From Candidatus Lambdaproteobacteria bacterium (lineage in GTDB: Bacteria; SAR324; JACQKK01): a stretch of DNA of 41,404 nucleotides. The translations under genes and the position numbers were made by a program. Location of the stretch: contig JACQHH010000181.1 in NCBI GenBank assembly GCA_016199125.1, positions 1-41,404 of the forward strand, written 5' to 3'. This document shows, in pieces, positions 2,010 through 41,404 of the stretch. Each line of letters begins with the position of its first letter. The first letter of the stretch is position 1. The notes under the pieces are model-generated. The model was not told the DNA's origin. It ran no database searches and saw nothing but the letters and a program-made list of their open reading frames with translations.

Positions 2010-2815
2010 GCCAGCCACTCCGGTACGGGCTTGCGCCGTTGCGCCTCGCGGAAGTCCTGCCGGTCGGCGCCGTGTTCGCTGATGCCGAGGTAGAATTCGC
2101 GGATGTCCTTGTTCTGCACCAGATCCTCGGCCCTGCCGTCGATGACCGCGCGGCCATTTTCGATCACGTATCCATAGGAGGCAGTGCGCAGGGCCGCGGT
2201 GGCGTTCTGTTCGACGATGAGCATGGACACCTCTTTCTCGCGGCTGATCTTGCGGATGATCTCGAAGATCTCGGCCACGATCATGGGCGCCAGGCCCAGC
2301 GAAGGTTCATCGAACAGAATCAGACGCGGTTGTGCCACCAGCGCCCGGCCGATCACCAGCATCTGCTGTTCACCGCCGGAAAGGTAGCCGGCGTTCTGCT
2401 TGCGGCGTTCGGCCAGGATGGGAAAGTACGAGTAGACTTCGTCAAAGGCGTGACGGCGCGCAGCGGGCCGCCCCACCGTGGCATAGGTGGCGGCGACCAG
2501 ATTGTCCTCCACGGTCATGTCCGCGAAGACATGCCTGCCTTCCCGCACCTGCACGATGCCGCTGCGCACCAGCAGGTGCGGTGCGGTGCCGAGAATGTCC
2601 GCGCCGCCCACCTGGATGGTCCCGTGGGTCACTTTTCCGCCTTCCAGCGGAAGAAATCCGGAGATGGCCTTCAGGGTCGTGGATTTGCCGGCGCCGTTTG
2701 CGCCGAGCAGAGCCACGATCTCGCCTTCAGGCACCTGCAACGAGAGTCCGTTGAGGGCCTGAATGGCGCCATGGTAGACGACCTCCAGATTGTTGATTTC
2801 CAGTGCCACGGTCAT
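2006..2815 (-). CDS. livF: Liv-type ABC transporter ATP-binding protein (LivF family)
   Basis: Walker A GANGAGKST, signature LSGGEQQM, Walker B ILFDEPSLGLAP, VEQN, IREFYLG. Family-level symbol. Confidence 0.93.
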   Translation of the reverse strand: MTVALEINNLEVVYHGAIQALNGLSLQVPEGEIVALLGANGAGKSTTLKAISGFLPLEGGKVTHGTIQVGGADILGTAPHLLVRSGIVQVREGRHVFADMTVEDNLVAATYATVGRPAARRHAFDEVYSYFPILAERRKQNAGYLSGGEQQMLVIGRALVAQPRLILFDEPSLGLAPMIVAEIFEIIRKISREKEVSMLIVEQNATAALRTASYGYVIENGRAVIDGRAEDLVQNKDIREFYLGISEHGADRQDFREAQRRKPVPEWLA

Positions 2816-2819
2816 GGGA

Positions 2820-4031
2820 TCAATCCGTCGTAATCCAGTCGGAGACCGGTTCCGGAGTCCAGTCCTTTTTGGCATTCCAGCGATAGATGCGGCCCACGCC
2901 GATCTTCTGCCCGCTGATGTTGACCTTGGTTCCGAACATGCCGCCGGTATCCCAATCCGTGACCGTGCGCAGGTTGTTGGCCAGGTTCGTGCCGGTGAGC
3001 GGCTGACCCTTGTCGATGGTCATCTCGATGGCCTTCGTGGCCAGCAGGGCATTGGCCCAGGAGTGGAAGTAGCCGATCTGCGCCTGCCCGTCGTATTTGG
3101 GGTTCTTGTCGCGCATGATCTTGTCGATCACTTTCAGGATCGGCTCGGAGCGGCCCGTGGTGGAATACGGATAGGGCTGCACGCCCATATAGCCGTCGGC
3201 GGCGGGCCCGATCTCCATCACCTTGATGCGGTCCATGGCCCAGATGGTGCCGAGAAATTTCGTGTCCAGTCCGTATTCTTTCACCTGCCGCATGATCTCC
3301 GGCCAGACGGAGAAGGCGTAGCCGTGAAAGACCACGAAATCCGGACGTGCCTGCCGGATGGCCAGGGCGAACGAGCCGACGTCCGTTTCAACGAATTTGG
3401 TCTGCTGGATCAGGGCGACGTCGATTTTCAGGCGCTTGGCAACCTGCTCCAGGCGTTCGACCGGGTCGCGGCCGAAGGCGATGTTGCTGTGCACCATGGC
3501 CACCTTGGGCGTGCCGGAGCCGGTGTACTGGGCGCGGACGTACTTCAGGGCGATTTCGATCATGTCGCCGTAGCTCGGTCCGGCCATGAAATGCAGCGGA
3601 TAGGTTTTGGTGTCGTCGAATTCCGTCGCGAACGACCCGCTGGTCATCAGGATGTCGTACGTGGAGTTGTTTTCCGCGTTGAGCGCCTTGGTCATGGCGG
3701 TGCCGTCGCCGGAGACATAGACCGGCTTGTAATTGGACAGCACGCGCTTGAAGCCCGCCACCGCCTCCGCCGGCTGGAACGTGGTGTCGGTCATCAACAG
3801 CTTGATCGTCCGTCCACGGATGCCGCCGTTGGCGTTCTTCCAGGCCACGTAGTCCTGAAAGCCTTCCGCCTGTTTTGAGCCGGAAAATGCGGCGGGGCCC
3901 GTAATGCCCACGTGGACGCTCCACACGATCTCCTCCGCCGCGGCGGCCGCACCCGAGGTGCCGATGACCAGCAGGGCCAGCGCACCGAGCGCCAACAATC
4001 GTCGAATCCAGCTCCTACGAATCGAGTTCAT
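2820..4031 (-). CDS. Liv-type ABC transporter substrate-binding protein (type 1 PBP)
   Basis: Signal peptide ending AAAA-EE, 'ITGPAA...NANGGIRGRTIKL...DT.FQP', 'AFGRDP'. AGGAG RBS; position inside the operon. Confidence 0.9.
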   Translation of the reverse strand: MNSIRRSWIRRLLALGALALLVIGTSGAAAAAEEIVWSVHVGITGPAAFSGSKQAEGFQDYVAWKNANGGIRGRTIKLLMTDTTFQPAEAVAGFKRVLSNYKPVYVSGDGTAMTKALNAENNSTYDILMTSGSFATEFDDTKTYPLHFMAGPSYGDMIEIALKYVRAQYTGSGTPKVAMVHSNIAFGRDPVERLEQVAKRLKIDVALIQQTKFVETDVGSFALAIRQARPDFVVFHGYAFSVWPEIMRQVKEYGLDTKFLGTIWAMDRIKVMEIGPAADGYMGVQPYPYSTTGRSEPILKVIDKIMRDKNPKYDGQAQIGYFHSWANALLATKAIEMTIDKGQPLTGTNLANNLRTVTDWDTGGMFGTKVNISGQKIGVGRIYRWNAKKDWTPEPVSDWITTD

Positions 4032-34106: not shown

Positions 34107-34252
34107 GAGCGAACCCAGGCGCAACCCGGACGTGGCGCGGCGCCGTTGCGCCGCCCCGCCGCTTGCGCCGAGCTGGGCCCCGGCGCCGGCCCGCCGCATG
34201 GCGCGGACCCCCGGCGCCCGCCACTTCCGCCGTCCCCACCCGTGGGCCGCCC

Positions 34253-34525
34253 ATGATCGCGTTCGAGCAGATCGATCCCTTCGTGAAGTTCTGGCAGGAA
34301 GACCGCACCTATCACCTGGACGTGCGCGAGCTGCTGGACAACGGCGGCGAGCCCTACGAGGTGATCATGTCCTGCGTGCTGCAGATCGACGCGGACGATC
34401 GGCTGGTGCTGCACGCCCCCTTCGAGCCCAAACCCCTCATCCGCCAGTTGCGCGGCATGGGCCTGCAGGCCCACAGCGCGCGGGTGGACGTGGATCATTG
34501 GACATTGGCCGTCAGTCGCGACTAG
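34253..34525 (+). CDS. DUF2249-domain (TusA/SirA-like fold) protein
   Basis: 'LDVRELLDNGGEPYEVIM...L.LHAPFEPKPL...L..MG......W' matches the DUF2249 pattern. Confidence 0.8.
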   Translation: MIAFEQIDPFVKFWQEDRTYHLDVRELLDNGGEPYEVIMSCVLQIDADDRLVLHAPFEPKPLIRQLRGMGLQAHSARVDVDHWTLAVSRD

Positions 34526-34695
34526 GCATTGTGTTGGAATGGCGGATCGCGTGAATCCGGCCGCGTTTGTCATTCCGAGGCCCGCAGTTTGGGCCGAGGA
34601 ATCTCATTGCTATAGCACGATGAGATTCCTCGCTGTGCTCGGAATGACAACAGGCGGGTAATTTTGAAGTTGCCATCGCATTGCCGAACAGAACC
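34525..34695. mobile_element. MITE-like element (TIR family A) carrying a GTCATTCCG-type REP hairpin
   Basis: CTA|GGCATTGTGTTGGAA ... TTGCCGAACAGAACC|TAG. Both flanking CTAGs are stop codons of convergent genes. Internal perfect 13-bp inverted repeat TTGTCATTCCGAG/CTCGGAATGACAA (34567-34650). Confidence 0.65.
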
Positions 34696-35084
34696 TAGTC
34701 CCGCGTCCAAAGCAGGGCGCGCAGCCTGGGGTGGCGCAGCGCCAGCCCGACCCACAACAGCGCCGCCACGTAGCACGGAAACAGCGTGTGGCTGAACAGC
34801 GGGCTGCCGATGCGCACGTGCGTGGCCACCGCACCCCCGAGATAGCCCGTCAGCCAGATCGAGCCGTAGAGCGCCGTCCACGGGATGACATAGAGCACCA
34901 GGCCCGCCAGCAGGAGTGCGCCGATGACCGGCACCGCGCCGGGCGGATAGCCGAGCTGGACGGTCCACTGGACGACGGCTTCCATGCGCAGCGCATGGGT
35001 CACTCCGTCGAAGAGGAGAAAAGCCACCGCGAGGCCGCTGAGCACGCGGCCGCTCCAGAGCTGTTTTCGTGTCACCTGATTCAT
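34695..35084 (-). CDS. DoxX-family membrane protein
   Basis: Four TM segments, 'LGYP', 'LYVIP.T...G...LTGYLGGAVATHVR'. GGAGG RBS before ATG 35084. Confidence 0.85.
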   Translation of the reverse strand: MNQVTRKQLWSGRVLSGLAVAFLLFDGVTHALRMEAVVQWTVQLGYPPGAVPVIGALLLAGLVLYVIPWTALYGSIWLTGYLGGAVATHVRIGSPLFSHTLFPCYVAALLWVGLALRHPRLRALLWTRD

Positions 35085-35230
35085 TGGCGTCGACCTCCCG
35101 TCCAGTCGGTTGGGCTGCGTGATGCGCTTGAACATCCCGTGGGTGCCGCGGGCGTCGCCCGGGATGCCGCAGGTCCATCCCCTTGCCGCCCGATGCGGCA
35201 AGGCCCGCGAATCCGCGCGCCACGGCGGGA

Positions 35231-35998
35231 TCAGGGTGAAGAGTCCTGGGACATCAGCTCCCGCAGCGCGTCCAGGTCGGGAATGAGAAATCCCTCCGGC
35301 GCCGAGTGCACCACGTTGTCCTTGTTCCAGCGGCTCATGATGCGGATCACGGTTTCCACCCGGGCGCCCACCATGCCGGCCACTTCGTTGCGGCTCAGGT
35401 GCACCGGCACCAGCACCCCGCCGTCCTGCTCCCGCCCCATCTCCCGCGCGTAGGTGAGCAGCAACTGGGCGATGCGCGACTGCACGCCGGCCTCCCCCAG
35501 CACCTCCAGCCGATGCCGCAGCGAGCGCACGCGCAGGTTGAGGTCGCGGATGATGGAGCGCGAAACCTCGGGAAAGCGCTCCAGCAGCTCCAGGTACTCC
35601 TTGCGCGCCAGCAGCATCACGCCGGCGTCCGTGCGGGCCACGGCATTGGCCGGGAAATCGTCGCCATTGATCAGCGCCACTTCGCCGAACGCTTCGCCGG
35701 GGCGGATGATGTCCATGATCATCTCACGCCCGGATTCCAGCGCCTTGAACACGGTCACCTCGCCCCTGAGCACGAAATAGAAATGCGTGCACGGATCGCC
35801 CTCGAAGAAGATCGCCTCGCCCTTGCGGTATTCGCGCAGGCTGCTCTGCTGGTGCAGCAGGGCGCGTGCCTTCTCGGAAATCCCTGAAAAGCGGGCGATT
35901 TTCTGGATGATGGCGGGGTCGATCAAGAGCGATCCTGATGCGGGGGCGGTCCCGGGCGCGGCGGGCGCTGGCGCAGGCGCCGTCCTACCCGCTACCAT
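35231..35998 (-). CDS. Crp/Fnr family transcriptional regulator (no FNR Cys cluster; DNR/NnrR/HcpR-like)
   Basis: cNMP-binding domain (IFFEGD, GEV, GEAFGEVA) and HTH 'SRNEVAGMVGARVETVIR'. Only one Cys. The true start may lie downstream of 35998. Confidence 0.9.
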   Translation of the reverse strand: MVAGRTAPAPAPAAPGTAPASGSLLIDPAIIQKIARFSGISEKARALLHQQSSLREYRKGEAIFFEGDPCTHFYFVLRGEVTVFKALESGREMIMDIIRPGEAFGEVALINGDDFPANAVARTDAGVMLLARKEYLELLERFPEVSRSIIRDLNLRVRSLRHRLEVLGEAGVQSRIAQLLLTYAREMGREQDGGVLVPVHLSRNEVAGMVGARVETVIRIMSRWNKDNVVHSAPEGFLIPDLDALRELMSQDSSP

Positions 35999-36040
35999 AT
36001 GACCGATGTCATAGTCGCGGCAACATGGCTATGGCAGAAT
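35999..36040 (+). promoter_or_regulatory. Crp/Fnr-type box plus extended -10 for the cytochrome b/Fe-S gene
   Basis: ATGAC-CGAT-GTCAT (35999-36012), 22-bp gap, TGG-CAGAAT (hexamer 36035-36040). Confidence 0.65.
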
Positions 36041-36112: not shown

Positions 36113-37714
36113 TTGCAGACGCCCCACACCTATTTCCCCACACGCCCGCCGGCCGCACGGCTGGTGGAGCGGATTTTCAATCCGCTGGACACGCTGTGCA
36201 ACCGTCTCTACGGCTCGCGCTACAATCCGCTCTACCAGAGCGGCACCATCGCCGTGCTGAGCCTGCTGGTGCTGCTGGTGACGGGGCTCTACCTGCTGTG
36301 GTTCTACAAGATCGGAGCCCCCTACGAGTCCGTGACCAACATCGAAGCGCAGTGGTGGGGCGGCCGTTTGATCCGCGCGGTGCACGTGTATGCCGGTGAC
36401 GTCATGATGGTCGCCGTGGCGGTGCACGCGCTGCGCATGGCCCTGCGCGGGCGCACCTGGGGACCGCGGGTGCTGGCCTGGATCAGCGGCGTGGTGCTGG
36501 TGTCCATCGTCATGATGAGCAGCATCACGGGCATGGTGCTGGTGTGGGATGTGCAGGGCCAGTTGCTGGCCATCGAGGGCGCGCGCATGGCGGACACGCT
36601 GCCCATCTTCTCCGAGCCCATCCAGCGCACGTTCATCAGCAGCCAGGGGGTGCCGGCCTCGTTCTTCTTCCTCAACCTGATCCTGCACATGGTGTTTCCC
36701 TTCGCCATCCTGATCGGGCTGTGGGTGCACACGCTGCGCGTGTCGCGGCCGGCGCTGCTGCCGCCGCGCAAGCTGTCGGCGTGGCTGCTGGTGGCCCTGT
36801 TGGGGGTGTCGCTGGCCTATCCGGCGGGCATGCTGCCGCCTGCGGACTACCTGACCATCCTGGGCCGGGTGCCCGTGGACTGGATCAACACGTTCTGGCT
36901 GCTCGTCTCGCGCAACGTGCCGCCGCCGGTGACGCTGCTCAGCGGGCTGGCGCTGTTCCTGTTCCTGGTGAGCGTGCCCTGGTGGTGGAAGCCGCGCCTG
37001 GCGGCGCACCCGGAGCCCGCGCGGGCCAACCCCAACCTGTGTACGGGCTGCACCCAGTGCTACAAGGACTGCCCCTACGGGGCCATCAGCATGGTGCCGG
37101 CGCCGCCCAGCAACCATGCCACGGACATCGTGGCGCTGATCAATCCGGCGCTGTGCGTGAGCTGCGGCATCTGCGCCGGGTCCTGCGGCCCCATGGTCGT
37201 GGGTCCGCCGGGGCGCGTGGGGCGCGACCACCTGCTGGCGGCCCAGCGCCTGATGACCGCCGCGGCCCCCGGCGCCGAGGACATCGTGCTCATGGCCTGC
37301 GAGCAGGGGCTGGGGCTGGAGCCGGTGCTGGCCGGGCTGCCGCACGTGACCGTGCACCGCCTGCACTGCGCCGCCGCCGTGCACACCTCGGCCATGGAAT
37401 ACCTGCTGCGGCGCGGCTGCGGCGGGGTGTACGTGCTGGCCTGTCCGGAGCGCGACTGCGCCTATCGCGAAGGCCCCAGGTGGCTCCGTGAGCGGCTCTA
37501 CGAGGACCGCGAGGCCGAGCTGCAGCCGCGCGTGGACAAGCGCCGCGTGAAGATGGGCGGTTTCGGCCCGGCCGACCTGCCCCAGGCCCTGGCCGACATC
37601 GGCGCGTTCCAGGCGGACATCGCCGCCCTGGCCCACGAGGCCCGTGACGAAGGGGACGTGCAGCTCGAACCCGATTGCGAGCCCATGCCGCTGGCGGAGG
37701 TGGCCCATGGTTAG
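36113..37714 (+). CDS. Fusion protein: di-heme cytochrome b/b6 domain + 2x[4Fe-4S] ferredoxin + MvhD/FlpD-like [2Fe-2S] domain
   Basis: Heme His pairs RAVHVY..AVHALR and ILHMV..WVHTLR; 'LVTGLYL..FY..GAPYESV'; CTGCTQCYKDCP; CVSCGICAGSCG; MAC..LHCAAAV..ACPERDCAYREG. TTG start with GGAG RBS. Confidence 0.88.
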   Translation: MQTPHTYFPTRPPAARLVERIFNPLDTLCNRLYGSRYNPLYQSGTIAVLSLLVLLVTGLYLLWFYKIGAPYESVTNIEAQWWGGRLIRAVHVYAGDVMMVAVAVHALRMALRGRTWGPRVLAWISGVVLVSIVMMSSITGMVLVWDVQGQLLAIEGARMADTLPIFSEPIQRTFISSQGVPASFFFLNLILHMVFPFAILIGLWVHTLRVSRPALLPPRKLSAWLLVALLGVSLAYPAGMLPPADYLTILGRVPVDWINTFWLLVSRNVPPPVTLLSGLALFLFLVSVPWWWKPRLAAHPEPARANPNLCTGCTQCYKDCPYGAISMVPAPPSNHATDIVALINPALCVSCGICAGSCGPMVVGPPGRVGRDHLLAAQRLMTAAAPGAEDIVLMACEQGLGLEPVLAGLPHVTVHRLHCAAAVHTSAMEYLLRRGCGGVYVLACPERDCAYREGPRWLRERLYEDREAELQPRVDKRRVKMGGFGPADLPQALADIGAFQADIAALAHEARDEGDVQLEPDCEPMPLAEVAHG

Positions 37715-38339
37715 GCGCGCGGGACTGTGGGTGCTGCGCTTCGCGGTGCCCGTGCTGGCGCTGCTGGCGCTGGTCTGGGTGGCGCGGCTGCCCATGGGCA
37801 GCGATCCGCGGGATGGCCTGCTGCGCCTGGCCTGGCGCACCGTGGGCGCGCGCATCAAGGTGTGCCGCGACTACACGCCCGCAGAGCTGCAACGCGTTCC
37901 CGCGCACATGCGCGCCCAGCGCATCTGCGCGCAATCGCTGCTGCCCTATCGCGTGCGCGCCAGCGTGGACGGCGTGCCCGTGGTGGATCAGCTCGTGCAA
38001 CCGGCCGGCGTGCGCGGCGACAGGCCGCTGTTCGTGCATCGCGACCTGACCCTGGCGCCGGGCACCCATCGGCTGGCGTTGCACTGGGACCCGGAGCCGG
38101 CCGAGGGCATCGAGGACGCCGCCTTGCGCGACGCCACCCGCGACGCCACCGCCGACGCGTCCCGCTACGCCCTGGAGCGCGAGGTGCGCATCGCCGCGGG
38201 GCGCATCGTCATGATCGAGCTGGACGAAGCGGCGCGCGGATTCCGCGTGATCGGCGAGGGCCAGACCGCCTCCCGCGGCAACCAGGCTCTGTCCGGGAAA
38301 GACGAATCGTCGATTCTTCGGGCCCTGGTGTCATTCTGA
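37707..38339 (+). CDS. Hypothetical N-terminally anchored exported protein, translationally coupled to the cytochrome b/Fe-S fusion
   Basis: GGAGG RBS and 8-bp overlap with the upstream gene. One TM, then 'LRLAWR...C...PAHMR..C..', beta-rich 'LAPGTHRL'. The last 18 codons lie inside a MITE. Confidence 0.75.
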   Translation: MVRRAGLWVLRFAVPVLALLALVWVARLPMGSDPRDGLLRLAWRTVGARIKVCRDYTPAELQRVPAHMRAQRICAQSLLPYRVRASVDGVPVVDQLVQPAGVRGDRPLFVHRDLTLAPGTHRLALHWDPEPAEGIEDAALRDATRDATADASRYALEREVRIAAGRIVMIELDEAARGFRVIGEGQTASRGNQALSGKDESSILRALVSF

Positions 38340-38518: not shown

Positions 38519-38681
38519 GGTTCTATCCGGGAATGGTTGCCGTACCCTTCGAGACGCCGCGCCTGGCGCGGCTCCTCGGGGATACGGCTTTGAAATCACG
38601 AGTGAAACTGAACACCGCGTGGCTGAGGAGAGCCCGCAGGGCGCGTCTCGAAGCCCGCATTTCACATTCTCGGACAGAGCT
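38519..38681. mobile_element. MITE-like element (TIR family A), near-identical sister of 30310-30469
   Basis: GGTTCTATCCGGGAA ... TTCTCGGACAGAGCT|TA (11/15). The right end coincides with the TAA stop of the Sco gene. 111/116 core identity with the 30334 copy. Confidence 0.8.
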
Positions 38682-39607
38682 TAGCTGCCGGCGCCGTCCG
38701 CGCGGCGCACCGCCTCCACGATCCAGGAGACTGGCGGATTGTTGAGCGCGTAGACGATCCGCAGGTCGCGGTCCAGCACGAAGACCAGCGGCACGTGGTC
38801 GATGACGCCCGTCCGCTCGTCTCGCCGACGCGCCACGCCGAACTGGTCCAGCACGCGGTTCACCCGCTCCACGTCTCCCGAAAGCATGAGCGTGCGCTCC
38901 GGCAGCTCCCAGTTCCGGCGCAGACCTTCCAACGCCGAGGGCGTGTCGCGCCAGGGATCCATGGTGATCACCACCAGCGCCGGGTTGACCGTGGCGGCCA
39001 GCTCCTTGGCACTGCGCGCCACCGTGCGCAGCACCAGCGGGCACACCGTTTCGCAGTGCCCGAAGCCGAAGGAGACGATCGCCGGGCGCCCGCGCAGGTG
39101 CGCCAGGGACAGCTTGGCCCCGTGCTGATCCACCAGCACAAAGTCCGGGGCCGGACGCTCCAACCGGGGATATCCCGCCGGCAGGGGCGCGATGGACTGG
39201 TTCACCTGCGGACCGCCGGCGCCCAACAGTCCCTGCCCCAGGCGCATGGCCACCCAGCCCGTTTCCAGCACCAGGGCCAGGGCCACCAGCCACATCAGCC
39301 CCATGCCCAGCGGCCGGCGGCCCAGTGCCCGCAGCCCGGCCAGCAGCTCCTGGGTCCAGCCCAGCCACAGCAGCGCCAGCATGCCCAGCGGGCCGGCGAT
39401 CAGCGCGCCCCATCCGTATGGCGCGGGCAGGCCATTGGCCTGGGTGCCGAAGCACACGCTCTGCAGCCGGGCCAGCCACACCGGCGCGGTACCTCCCTGC
39501 GGGGCGAAGGCCAGCCCCCACCAGCTCATGGTCGCGGCCAGCCACAACAGCAGCATCAGCAGCGACAGGTTCGCCCCTGGTGAACTTTTGGCCAAACTAG
39601 CGTTCAA
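38681..39607 (-). CDS. sco: Sco/SenC copper chaperone with an N-terminal multi-TM extension
   Basis: PDFVLVDQHG, FGFGHCETVCP (CxxxC), ITMDPWRDTP, IDH. About three N-terminal TM helices with 'VCFGT..NGLP'. Start approximate. Confidence 0.88.
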   Translation of the reverse strand: MNASLAKSSPGANLSLLMLLLWLAATMSWWGLAFAPQGGTAPVWLARLQSVCFGTQANGLPAPYGWGALIAGPLGMLALLWLGWTQELLAGLRALGRRPLGMGLMWLVALALVLETGWVAMRLGQGLLGAGGPQVNQSIAPLPAGYPRLERPAPDFVLVDQHGAKLSLAHLRGRPAIVSFGFGHCETVCPLVLRTVARSAKELAATVNPALVVITMDPWRDTPSALEGLRRNWELPERTLMLSGDVERVNRVLDQFGVARRRDERTGVIDHVPLVFVLDRDLRIVYALNNPPVSWIVEAVRRADGAGS

Positions 39608-39729: not shown

Positions 39730-39772
39730 CATGACAATTGTCATGGCGCCCCCCCTGGCCGCACCGCATGAT
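39730..39772 (+). promoter_or_regulatory. Crp/Fnr-type box plus -10 element for the heme-copper oxidoreductase operon
   Basis: Perfect 16-bp palindrome CATGACAATTGTCATG (core ATGAC-AATT-GTCAT, 39731-39744), 22-bp gap, CATGAT (39767-39772). Confidence 0.7.
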
Positions 39773-39843
39773 GCACCTGACCGCTGTGCCGCGCCAGGCG
39801 GCAGGTGTTCGACAATGTCAACCCGCGAATCAAAGGGATAGCC

Positions 39844-40008
39844 ATGAGCGCAAGCCCTGACTCCAGAAACGAGCGAGTGCCGTTCATGCAGCAACTGTTC
39901 GACAGCCCGTTCCTGCTGCTCATTGCCGGGCTGGTGGTGATGTTCATCTTCTTTACGGGCTGGGGATTGGTGGAAATCTTCTCCCTGCCGCCCGCCACAT
40001 TGCCCTGA
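39844..40008 (+). CDS. Small single-TM subunit of the heme-copper oxidoreductase (subunit IIa-like)
   Basis: 54 aa, 'PFMQQLFDSPFLLLIAGLVVMFIFFTGWGLVEI', immediately before a one-TM subunit II as in B-family operons. Confidence 0.7.
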   Translation: MSASPDSRNERVPFMQQLFDSPFLLLIAGLVVMFIFFTGWGLVEIFSLPPATLP

Positions 40009-40028
40009 CCGTAAACTAGGAGGCACCA

Positions 40029-40568
40029 ATGCCGATGCATTCGGGTATCGTCTCACCCCAGGGCGTCTGGTGGAAGCCCGTGGGCAAGCAGGAAAAAATC
40101 TGGGTCACCGTGGCCTTCATCTGGTGCATGGTGCTCTTTGCCATGATGCCCTTCTGGCACTTCAAGGGCGGCCAGAACCCCTCCGGCACCCGCAGCCGCG
40201 TGGAGCCGGCAGCCTATTTCGAGCGCGTCAACCGCTTCGTCGAAGACTACAAGGTCGGCGAGGAGAATGGCGTGCCCATCGTGGAACCGCCGCCGGGCAG
40301 CGAGGTGTACCTGTTGGCGCGCATGTGGCAATGGTATCCCATCCTCAAGCTCAAGCAGGGAGCCACCTACACGTTGCACCTCTCGTCGCTGGACCTGAAC
40401 CACGGCTTCAGCCTGTACCCGGTCAACATCAACTTCCAGGTCATCCCGGGCTACGACTATGGGCTGCAGATGACACCCAACCGTTCAGGTGATTTTCGCA
40501 TCGTCTGCAACGAATTCTGTGGGATTGGCCACCACTTGATGGTGGGCAAAGTCCTCGTCGAACCGTAG
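40029..40568 (+). CDS. Heme-copper oxidoreductase subunit II with CuA site (B-family type, single TM)
   Basis: DLNHGF and CNEFCGIGHHLM (H...CxExCxxxHxxM). AGGAGG RBS. Confidence 0.93.
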   Translation: MPMHSGIVSPQGVWWKPVGKQEKIWVTVAFIWCMVLFAMMPFWHFKGGQNPSGTRSRVEPAAYFERVNRFVEDYKVGEENGVPIVEPPPGSEVYLLARMWQWYPILKLKQGATYTLHLSSLDLNHGFSLYPVNINFQVIPGYDYGLQMTPNRSGDFRIVCNEFCGIGHHLMVGKVLVEP

Positions 40569-40613
40569 TCAACCCTTGCTCCGCAACGGAGCCCCCATTT
40601 CAGGAGGCATTCG

Positions 40614-41404
40614 ATGAGCGTTGCCCAAAGCGCAGCCGCACCAGGCCTGTTCCGCACATGCCCGGTGACGACGCTCAAGATTCACCGCAGCGCCGAAACG
40701 CTGATCAAGGTCAATGCGGTGGTGGCAGTGGTCGCGTTTCTGATCGGCGTCTCTGCCGCCATTCTGCTCGTTTTGACCCGCTGGCAGGTCGTGCACCTGC
40801 TGCCGGCCGACTGGTATTACCGCATCTTGACGGCCCACGGCCTCAACATGCTGATTTTCTTCATCCTGTTCTTCGAGATGGCGGTGCTCTACTTTGCCGG
40901 GCCCGTCCTGCTCAACAGCCGTCTGCCCGCGCCCTGGGCCGGCTGGCTGGCCTTCGGGCTGATGGTGGTGGGGGCCGCGATGGTGGAGGTGATGGTCTTC
41001 ACCGGGCGCGCCGACGTGCTGTTCACCTCATACGTGCCGTTGAAGGCCCATCCCAACTACTACCTGGGGATCATCCTCTTCGCCGTGGGCGCGCTGATCG
41101 TCACGATCCTGTTCCTGGCCACGCTGGTCGTGGCCAAGCGCGAGAAAACCTACACGGGCTCCATGCCGCTGGTGACCTTCGGCGCTCTCACGGCCGATAT
41201 CATCGCGATCGTCACGCTGCTGCACGGCGCGGCCATCTACATCCCCACCTGGCTGTGGTCCATGGGGCTGATGAACGTGGACCCGGAGGTCTACCGCATG
41301 GTGTGGTGGGCCCTGGGTCACGCCTCGCAGCAGATCAACGTGGCCGCCATGGTCTCCATCTGGTACCTCATGGCCGGGTTCACGGTGGGCGGCGTGGTGC
41401 TCAA
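40614..41404 (+). CDS. Heme-copper oxidoreductase subunit I, B-family derived, eNOR-like nitric oxide reductase (truncated by the window end)
   Basis: Missing from the ORF track because it has no stop. AGGAGG RBS, ATG 40614, open to the end. YYRILTAHG (low-spin heme His), LFTSYVPL, helix VI WWALGHASQQ (His codon 41319, Gln at the H+4 Tyr position). Confidence 0.88.
   Translation, partial: MSVAQSAAAPGLFRTCPVTTLKIHRSAETLIKVNAVVAVVAFLIGVSAAILLVLTRWQVVHLLPADWYYRILTAHGLNMLIFFILFFEMAVLYFAGPVLLNSRLPAPWAGWLAFGLMVVGAAMVEVMVFTGRADVLFTSYVPLKAHPNYYLGIILFAVGALIVTILFLATLVVAKREKTYTGSMPLVTFGALTADIIAIVTLLHGAAIYIPTWLWSMGLMNVDPEVYRMVWWALGHASQQINVAAMVSIWYLMAGFTVGGVVL

Follow-up and report, generated by a model that had tools for sequence, protein, structure and literature searches.

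Genes at the end of the contig

The stretch of DNA analyzed here, referred to as the window, is the whole of contig JACQHH010000181.1 (41,404 nucleotides; contig C155 below) of the Candidatus Lambdaproteobacteria bacterium assembly GCA_016199125.1, a genome that is 73.5% complete and comprises 238 contigs. Its end carries genes that resemble those of a cytochrome c oxidase and whose features, described below, point to a nitric oxide (NO) reductase of the eNOR family. The enzyme locus contains the following features:

40614–41402, plus strand: catalytic subunit I, N-terminal 263 residues (helices I–VI), in an open reading frame (ORF) that is open at its 3′ end and cut at the contig end (41404)
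41304–41333, plus strand: helix VI motif WWALGHASQQ, residues 231–240 of subunit I, with H236 at 41319–41321 and Q240 at 41331–41333
40029–40568, plus strand: subunit II, 179 amino acids, with one transmembrane (TM) helix (residues 24–42) and a cupredoxin domain, 45 nucleotides upstream of subunit I
39844–40008, plus strand (listed from a GTG at 39805): small one-helix subunit, a positional analogue of subunit IIa of ba3 oxidase

The initial annotation of this DNA had noted that subunit I was missing from the ORF track. The real ORF was found and runs open into the contig end; it is absent from the track because programs that skip open-ended frames would miss it. The other features named there, that is, the stretch YYRILTAHG (residues 68–76; 40815–40841), the motif WWALGHASQQ, a subunit II with CuA and a single TM helix, and a small IIa-like gene, are all in place and are not the product of chance. 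The subunit I fragment scores 93.3 bits against Pfam COX1 (cut-off 34.8). A full-length homolog, P0001 (571 amino acids), which was picked out of thousands of relatives, is 91% identical across all 263 residues; the fragment has no stops, and its G+C content at third codon positions (GC3) is 0.91, like that of the adjacent genes. In a search of NCBIfam, which holds no model for the eNOR family, no oxidase equivalog fitted the fragment, the scores being 66 bits for CtaD (cut-off 670) and 32.7 bits for TIGR00780 (ccoN; cut-off 583).

Subunit II has a complete set of CuA ligands, with the histidine in NHGFS followed by C-N-E-F-C-G-I-G-H-H-L-M (H...C-x-E-x-C-x3-H-x2-M), and scores 20.2 bits against Pfam COX2, just below the cut-off of 22, and weakly against NCBIfam CoxB (45 bits; cut-off 147.7). 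For the small ORF, the ATG at 39844, where the initial annotation begins, is the likelier start because a Shine–Dalgarno-like AAGGGA lies 8 nucleotides upstream of it. Conservation of the genes was assessed by tblastn in 80 related loci, which are the best 80 of 588 genome matches and all come from metagenome-assembled genomes (MAGs). Subunit II was found in 80 of these 80 loci and the small ORF in 78, as well as in two of three named plasmid loci; the latter protein has the motif ER(I/V)PFMQQ..D.PFLLL in common with Defluviimonas and Thermomicrobium.

The remainder of subunit I

Searching the organism's own genome with P0001 revealed a C-terminal part of 320 residues at the very end of contig C200, which is 90% identical to residues 252–571 of P0001 and bears the HH pair as well as the heme ligands in GHFH. 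This piece is probably the continuation of the window gene or a close variant of it. The C155 and C200 pieces were never joined and entered the analyses as two separate rows. Retrieval of the rest of the gene, which the initial annotation had recommended, has thereby yielded a candidate for the C-terminal part; the downstream histidine ligands, which were to be checked as well, are present on this piece (H285, H286, H390, and H392).

A riverine RNA-library run contained short, near-identical contigs, for example one of 156 nucleotides with 0 differences over 40673–40828. These contigs are no evidence of transcription and were not used.

Active-site residues

Residues were mapped by a phmmer alignment of P0001 with the ba3 oxidase of Thermus thermophilus, counted by hand and checked at ba3 H233, H282/283, and S309. 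In this alignment, ba3 H233 corresponds to H236, and the tyrosine of the cross-link, Y237, corresponds to Q240. Further pairs are Y248 and Y251, S309 and S313, and T315 and T319, together with three positions at which the residue type differs, namely Y244 (V247), T312 (H316), and S261 (N264).

Conservation at these sites was examined in 320 aligned relatives, which comprise the 80 MAG loci and, for the window fragment and the Thermomicrobium gene, the best 120 matches each. Every one of the 320 has Q240, and 319 have Q239. All six canonical histidine ligands are accounted for: H75 and H236, each found in 319 of the 320, lie in the window, and H285, H286, H390, and H392 (320/320 each) are encoded on C200. 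Residues present in the window fragment itself are H75, a ligand of the low-spin heme, the metal ligand H236, and Q239, Q240, and Y251. The analogue of the K-channel is made up of S313 (318/320), Y251 (319/320), H316 (320/320), and a threonine or serine at position 319; of these, only Y251 lies in the window.

The eNOR family was reportedly described by Hemp and Gennis in 2008. The rule that the initial annotation had given, according to which eNOR has a glutamine at the site of the cross-linked tyrosine, is in print in section 2.7.1 and Table A4 of PMC8756737. In that paper, glutamine at this alignment position defines eNOR subunit I (“eNOR Q, 1 proton channel” in Table A4), the same position being tyrosine in oxygen reductases, glutamate in cNOR and qNOR, and asparagine in sNOR. 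The same paper states that eNOR-type genes are frequently annotated as cytochrome c oxidase.

A second paper, PMC11214002 (Murali et al. 2024), describes the purified eNOR of Rhodothermus marinus DSM 4252, which reduces NO at 0.68 per second, was unable to reduce O2 with the range of donors tried, and contains a modified heme a (heme As). It further reports that the family is widespread in nature, that it retains the B-type K-channel including the equivalent of ba3 S309, and that in some eNORs histidine and lysine serve as the ligands of the low-spin heme. For related enzymes, it describes a similar K-channel and electrogenic turnover in bNOR and an aspartate in place of one histidine ligand in gNOR.

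Phylogeny and related families

The surroundings of the family were surveyed in a library of 50%-identity representatives, which were grouped by their helix VI motif into four groups. The Gln-Gln group includes P0121 and P0125, with 59% and 42% identity to P0001, respectively. Four sequences with a Gln-Tyr motif, GHxxQY (P0127, P0128, P0130, and P0146), are 37–44% identical to P0001, and typical B-family sequences with GHPxVYFW are about 30–33% identical. The fourth, odd group (P0175, P0189, P0201, and P0268) reads FHxxHY in helix VI and has LYH in place of the HH metal ligands of all other families. Among named plasmid genes, those of Defluviimonas, T. thermophilus, and Thermomicrobium roseum are of the Gln-Gln type, and those of Haloarcula, Geobacillus, Brevibacillus, and Methylobacterium are tyrosine-bearing B-type genes that read GHP(I/L/V)VY. 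The Gln-Gln plasmid genes are annotated as “cbb3-type” or “b(o/a)3-type” oxidases, which bears out the expectation in the initial annotation that pipelines would mislabel such an enzyme as an oxidase. A protein search that started with the Thermomicrobium gene led no further than an Ardenticatenales MAG.

The Gln-Gln gene of T. thermophilus reads GHFK, with lysine as the second ligand of the low-spin heme, and represents the published His/Lys variant. On the Thermus plasmid pTthSNM6-6b (3875–9700), a gene with a multicopper-oxidase domain and genes for a cytochrome c and a cytochrome P460 lie upstream of the eNOR-like gene, and its downstream neighbors are an Rrf2 regulator and a DUF542 gene, a context connected with NO stress or denitrification.

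A careful tree of 41 rows was calculated with IQ-TREE under LG+C20 PMSF, with support given as UFBoot/SH-aLRT; the partial representatives P0122, P0123, P0226, and P0242 were left out of the second tree set. P0001 groups with the window and C200 fragments at 100/95. All 15 rows with glutamine form one clade at 100/100, which includes the T. thermophilus, Thermomicrobium roseum, and Defluviimonas plasmid genes. The 17 tyrosine-bearing B-family rows stand apart at 92/74, among them a Haloarcula gene annotated as b(o/a)3. The four Gln-Tyr rows branch just outside the glutamine clade in an order that is not resolved. The odd FHxxHY group (100/100 for its four rows) is sister to eNOR plus the Gln-Tyr rows, the union having 100/97. 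Two quick trees agree with this topology. A grouping with O2 reductases, which the initial annotation had named as refuting its reading, was not seen; the fragment lies instead inside the all-glutamine clade, separate from the 17 B-family rows.

The best matches among solved structures are ba3-type B-family oxidases (T. thermophilus, PDB 1EHK and 3S8F; Aquifex-type, 7DEG), with E ~1e-44. In common with them, the present enzyme has the six histidine ligands, a single-helix subunit II with CuA, a third subunit of small size, and one K-type channel (equivalents of S309, Y248, and T315); it differs in that GHPxVYFW is replaced by GHxSQQ(I/V)N, the window reading GHASQQ. The Tyr-retaining GHxxQY relatives have Q239, H316, Y275, and the helix-II motif HG.N.L in common with the glutamine clade, but keep a tyrosine four residues after the helix-VI histidine (H+4) and stand outside the 100/100 clade. 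They may still be oxygen reductases because this tyrosine is retained, and may represent oxygen reductases on the stem towards eNOR. The cbb3-type oxidases are unlike the present enzyme, which scores below the cut-off of the CcoN model, has a CuA partner subunit, and lacks a tyrosine six residues before the HH pair. Like eNOR, the bNOR or qCuANOR of Bacillus azotoformans, sNOR, gNOR, and nNOR are NO reductases that derive from the B-family and lack the tyrosine. Two of these have different active-site substitutions, asparagine in sNOR (PMC8756737, Table A4) and aspartate for histidine in gNOR, and are set apart here on the basis of the literature.

With published eNOR, the present enzyme shares the glutamine at the tyrosine site, the B-family ancestry, a one-helix CuA subunit II encoded directly upstream, K-channel-like residues, and a database label of cytochrome oxidase, as well as the SCO and cytochrome b/Fe-S genes nearby (see below) that a Ferrigenium preprint describes. 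It differs in that this copy has no adjacent gene for a heme o/a synthase, and none of the features tested contradicts the definition of the family. Taken as predictions from sequence, these data make it highly probable that the locus encodes an eNOR-family NO reductase descended from B-type (ba3-like) heme-copper oxidases. The enzyme is an ordinary member of a family that has already been described and biochemically sampled, and the enzyme type is not new. A homolog close to it occurs in 10 of 30 relatives (7/18 in the same family, 3/12 in the same order), that is, in a patchy distribution.

Neighboring genes

The genes upstream of the enzyme genes in the window, and those next to the C-terminal fragment on C200, are as follows:

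38681–39607, minus strand: SCO1/SenC copper chaperone (Pfam SCO1-SenC, 84 bits)
37644–38339, plus strand, with a probable start at 37707 (210 amino acids): membrane-anchored partner protein with one N-terminal TM helix
36113–37714, plus strand: cytochrome b/Fe-S fusion protein (Pfam Cytochrome_B, Fer4_7, and FlpD)
35231–35998, minus strand: Crp/Fnr-family regulator, 255 amino acids (Pfam cNMP_binding and HTH_Crp_2)
C200:12029–14567, downstream of the subunit I fragment: NnrS (460 amino acids, Pfam 191 bits), then a putative cyclase (PF04199)

The SCO1 protein, whose gene is present in 75 of the 80 related loci, presumably serves CuA assembly. The fusion protein combines a di-heme cytochrome b with six predicted TM helices (His91/His105 and His192/His206, the members of each pair being 13 residues apart) with two CxxCxxCxxxC motifs for [4Fe-4S] clusters and an FlpD/MvhD-like domain, its C-terminal part being predicted to be cytoplasmic. 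Its gene lies beside the enzyme genes in 75 of the 80 loci and also in Defluviimonas. The product of 37707–38339 has no match in Pfam or NCBIfam and is a conserved partner of the cytochrome b/Fe-S gene, detected by tblastn in 63 of the 80 loci. In a structure search of the Atlas, this partner aligned to parts of cytochrome b/Fer4/FlpD proteins of 500–700 residues from Nitrospinota, Nitrospirota, and Bacteroidota, with TM-scores of about 0.5; these matches hint, as a lead only, that the partner is fused to its neighbor elsewhere.

The sequence-predicted gene content matches that of published eNOR operons. The Ferrigenium preprint (10.64898/2026.01.22.701106) describes an operon that comprises eNOR II and eNOR I, a heme o synthase, sco1, cytochrome b/Fe-S genes, and a “scaffold protein of unknown function.” On the Defluviimonas plasmid, a single operon unites the gene set found here with a heme o synthase, but there the SCO, cytochrome b/Fe-S, and partner genes lie downstream of the enzyme genes, whereas here they lie upstream, with SCO on the opposite strand. 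eNOR operons often include CtaA. The initial annotation had suggested looking for a neighboring heme a synthase; in the window, none adjoins the operon, and adjacent genes on contig C153 encode CtaA and CtaB.

The regulator scored below the cut-off of the NCBIfam models CRP, NtcA, FixK, and FnrL. It lacks an FNR-type Fe-S cluster motif because it has a single cysteine, and it may be Dnr/NnrR-like. The gene is found near the enzyme genes in 2 of the 80 related loci. A DUF2249 gene (34163–34525) and a gene for a DoxX-like membrane protein (34695–35201) adjoin it, each with 0 occurrences in the 80 loci. On C200, the presence of NnrS next to the subunit I fragment fits an NO theme; beyond NnrS and the putative cyclase lie two chemoreceptor genes, one of them with a Tll0287-like sensor domain.

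Respiratory genes elsewhere in the genome and a shared promoter box

Scanning the genome with PF00115 gave four matches, namely an oxidase on contig C193, the two eNOR fragments, and a weak ORF on contig C159. The C193 protein is an aa3-type A-family oxidase (CtaD, 718 bits, above the cut-off), and the genome as assembled (73.5% complete) contains no other NOR-like PF00115 match. The C159 ORF (1240–2646, minus strand; 468 amino acids) is weakly heme-copper oxidase-like, with 36 bits against PF00115 and 24% identity to P0001. It keeps the helix-II histidine, one helix-VI histidine (GGGHVFQF), and two heme histidines (PAHYHAT), and is without the HH pair. It lies on the same strand as, and between, the N-terminal (2643–3431) and C-terminal (127–1086) halves of a FadD8-like acyl-CoA ligase, and could represent an insertion, a gene split in two, or a chimera of the assembly.

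A gene for the nitrite reductase NirK is present on contig C45 (353 bits against a curated cut-off of 296), and palindromic boxes occur upstream of the genes in the window:

C45:4318–5745: NirK, 475 amino acids, with a fused C-terminal cytochrome c domain
C45:2777–3406: second SCO1/SenC gene, about 0.9 kb downstream of nirK
39731–39744, no strand assigned: palindromic box ATGACAATTGTCAT, the core of a 16-nucleotide perfect palindrome (39730–39745), between the SCO gene and the enzyme operon
35999–36012, no strand assigned: palindromic box ATGACCGATGTCAT, lying where the regulator gene and the cytochrome b/Fe-S gene diverge

The strict core TGACA-N2-TGTCA occurs in two copies in the 2.98-Mb genome, the second being at C45:5958, 213 bp upstream of nirK. 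The wider pattern ATGAC-N4-GTCAT has seven matches genome-wide, compared with 0–4 (mean 0.9) in ten shuffles, and three of its copies are in promoter regions, those of nirK, of SCO and the operon, and of the regulator and the cytochrome b/Fe-S gene. The TGA-N6-TCA core within this pattern is typical of Crp/Fnr sites. The canonical FNR box, TTGAT-N4-ATCAA, had 12 matches in the window with up to two mismatches, none of them upstream of the operon, and was dropped. The shared box suggests a small regulon that joins the producer and the consumer of NO. The initial annotation had spoken of hidden denitrification or NO detoxification, and the NirK–cytochrome c gene, which shares its upstream box with the operon, lends support to that view.

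Another copy of the pattern, at C3:15509–15522, lies just upstream of a HigB-like toxin/HTH antitoxin pair. It is probably the operator of the higBA pair itself and unrelated to the nirK and eNOR boxes.

Assessment of the assignment

This section weighs the observations that speak against reading the locus as an eNOR. Only part of the gene lies in the window; H285, H286, H390, and H392, which are four of the six histidine ligands, are read from C200. The ends of C155 and C200 overlap homologously over 38 nucleotides, of which just 25 are identical, with no exact overlap; because the overlap is not identical, C200 may carry a strain variant or a paralog. Among the contigs of the two best-matching public DNA runs, none bridges the gap between C155 and C200; they are short unitigs, and their ends lie at 41352 (X1) and 41309 (X2). 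That the gene stops at the contig end, that its overlap with C200 is inexact, and that public contigs break at about 41352 could also be taken to mean that it is a dead fragment or an assembly artifact. The fragment is, however, 91% identical over 263 residues to the full-length P0001, free of stops, typical in GC3, and intact at all conserved positions, and it is common for metagenome assemblies to break at genes that are conserved and vary between strains; the chance that it is dead or artifactual is in our view close to negligible.

A second point concerns tyrosine. The site six residues before the HH pair, which we take to be that of the helix-VII tyrosine of cbb3, is occupied by isoleucine (Ile279) in 317 of the 320 relatives. 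Another helix-VII tyrosine, Y275, ten residues before H285, is conserved in 308 of them. Of the compensating tyrosine that, according to the initial annotation, would refute its reading, there is thus no trace at this cbb3 site, although a conserved tyrosine does exist in helix VII. The enzyme might on this basis be a divergent B-type oxygen reductase that reduces O2 without the helix-VI tyrosine, for example via Y275 or Y251, and several further facts would suit such a role: the closest solved structures are ba3-type oxidases, the six histidine ligands, CuA subunit, and K-channel-like residues are kept, the organism, which has an aa3 oxidase, is an aerobe, and expression of the R. marinus eNOR requires microoxic conditions (PMC11214002). 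Yet Y275 is also present in P0127 and P0130, which keep the helix-VI tyrosine, and therefore did not arise as a substitute upon the loss of that tyrosine. It is replaced by isoleucine in 11 of the 120 Thermomicrobium-like relatives, and its distance from H285 along the helix would be about 15 Å. Judged from these sequence patterns, Y275 does not look like a compensating cofactor. The R. marinus eNOR failed to reduce O2, and the main text of PMC11214002 finds no migrated tyrosine in structural models of these NOR families. We regard an oxygen reductase as very improbable.

The tree, for its part, holds no biochemically tested eNOR (R. marinus is not in it), so membership rests on the published hallmark. 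Assignment to eNOR is, in this sense, predicted from that hallmark together with the His/Lys variant, the operon content, and the glutamine clade.

Further points come from the surroundings of the enzyme. CtaB was found by tblastn, with one query, near the enzyme genes in just 6 of the 80 loci. NnrS was considered as a conserved neighbor and rejected, being found in 0 of the 80. The box pattern ATGAC-N4-GTCAT is not exclusive to these promoters, three of its seven matches being intragenic and one lying before the higBA pair. In the genome, NarG, NapA, NirS, and NosZ of both types were not above the cut-off, which does not show their absence because the genome is just 73.5% complete. The lack of a recognized nitrate reductase and N2O reductase would fit the view that NO reduction serves purely as detoxification and does not conserve energy in respiration, with NO coming from neighbors or from side reactions of NirK, or that the substrate is another small nitrogen oxide. 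The NO-stress-type genes around the Thermus plasmid homolog (Rrf2 regulator, DUF542, and cytochrome P460) and NnrS after the C200 fragment would fit as well, and a generalized or detoxifying role is considered possible in PMC8756737. Against this, the box in common with nirK speaks for a route from nitrite to N2O under one common control, charge separation is suggested by the conserved K-channel residues, and at this completeness missing steps prove little. A purely detoxifying role, or a different substrate, is therefore unlikely in our estimate, and an NO reductase of the eNOR family that works together with NirK remains the preferred reading.

Proposed mechanism

The scheme proposed here draws on the sequence features, tree placement, conserved neighborhood, and shared box observed in this genome. 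By homology to the R. marinus enzyme, the window enzyme is expected to catalyze NO reduction; the identity of the metal, the type of heme, the uptake of protons, what donates the electrons, and how regulator and box are connected are given as we infer them. A periplasmic one-electron carrier, with a cytochrome c and NirK's fused cytochrome c domain as candidates, would reduce the CuA site of subunit II, whose copper would be loaded by SCO1. Electrons would then pass from CuA to the low-spin heme (His75 and His392) and on to the binuclear site, which would consist of the high-spin heme (His390) together with a non-heme metal that His236, His285, and His286 coordinate. At this site, two NO molecules would be converted to N2O and water. 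Because Gln240 replaces the tyrosine of the His–Tyr cross-link, the fourth electron for O2 reduction would be missing, and the enzyme would act as an NO reductase and not as an oxidase. Protons would probably be taken up from the cytoplasm via the K-channel analogue (Y251, N264/E265, S313, H316, and T319), making the reaction electrogenic. A Crp/Fnr-type regulator that binds ATGAC-N4-GTCAT would switch on the operon together with nirK, so that the organism could convert nitrite to N2O.

Slightly beyond what is in print are two modestly new elements, the conserved pair of cytochrome b/Fe-S protein and partner, and the shared promoter box. Tentatively, and with less confidence than in the enzyme itself, we consider that the cytochrome b/Fe-S fusion and its partner might be a dedicated module, which could either couple eNOR function to the quinone pool or to a cytoplasmic reductant or take part in eNOR maturation, for example in making its heme A-type cofactor at low O2. 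The question of how this cofactor is made under scarce oxygen is raised in a 2026 preprint. In the former case, the cytochrome b/Fe-S module would be a new respiratory link for NO reduction.

For this genome, the annotation of the locus changes from cytochrome oxidase to NO reductase. The case adds one more to a known kind of mislabeling, by which genome surveys under-count NO reducers, as is stated in PMC8756737, PMC11214002, and the Ferrigenium preprint (10.64898/2026.01.22.701106). Together with NirK, the enzyme makes the organism a predicted aerobe that would be able to turn nitrite into the greenhouse gas N2O.

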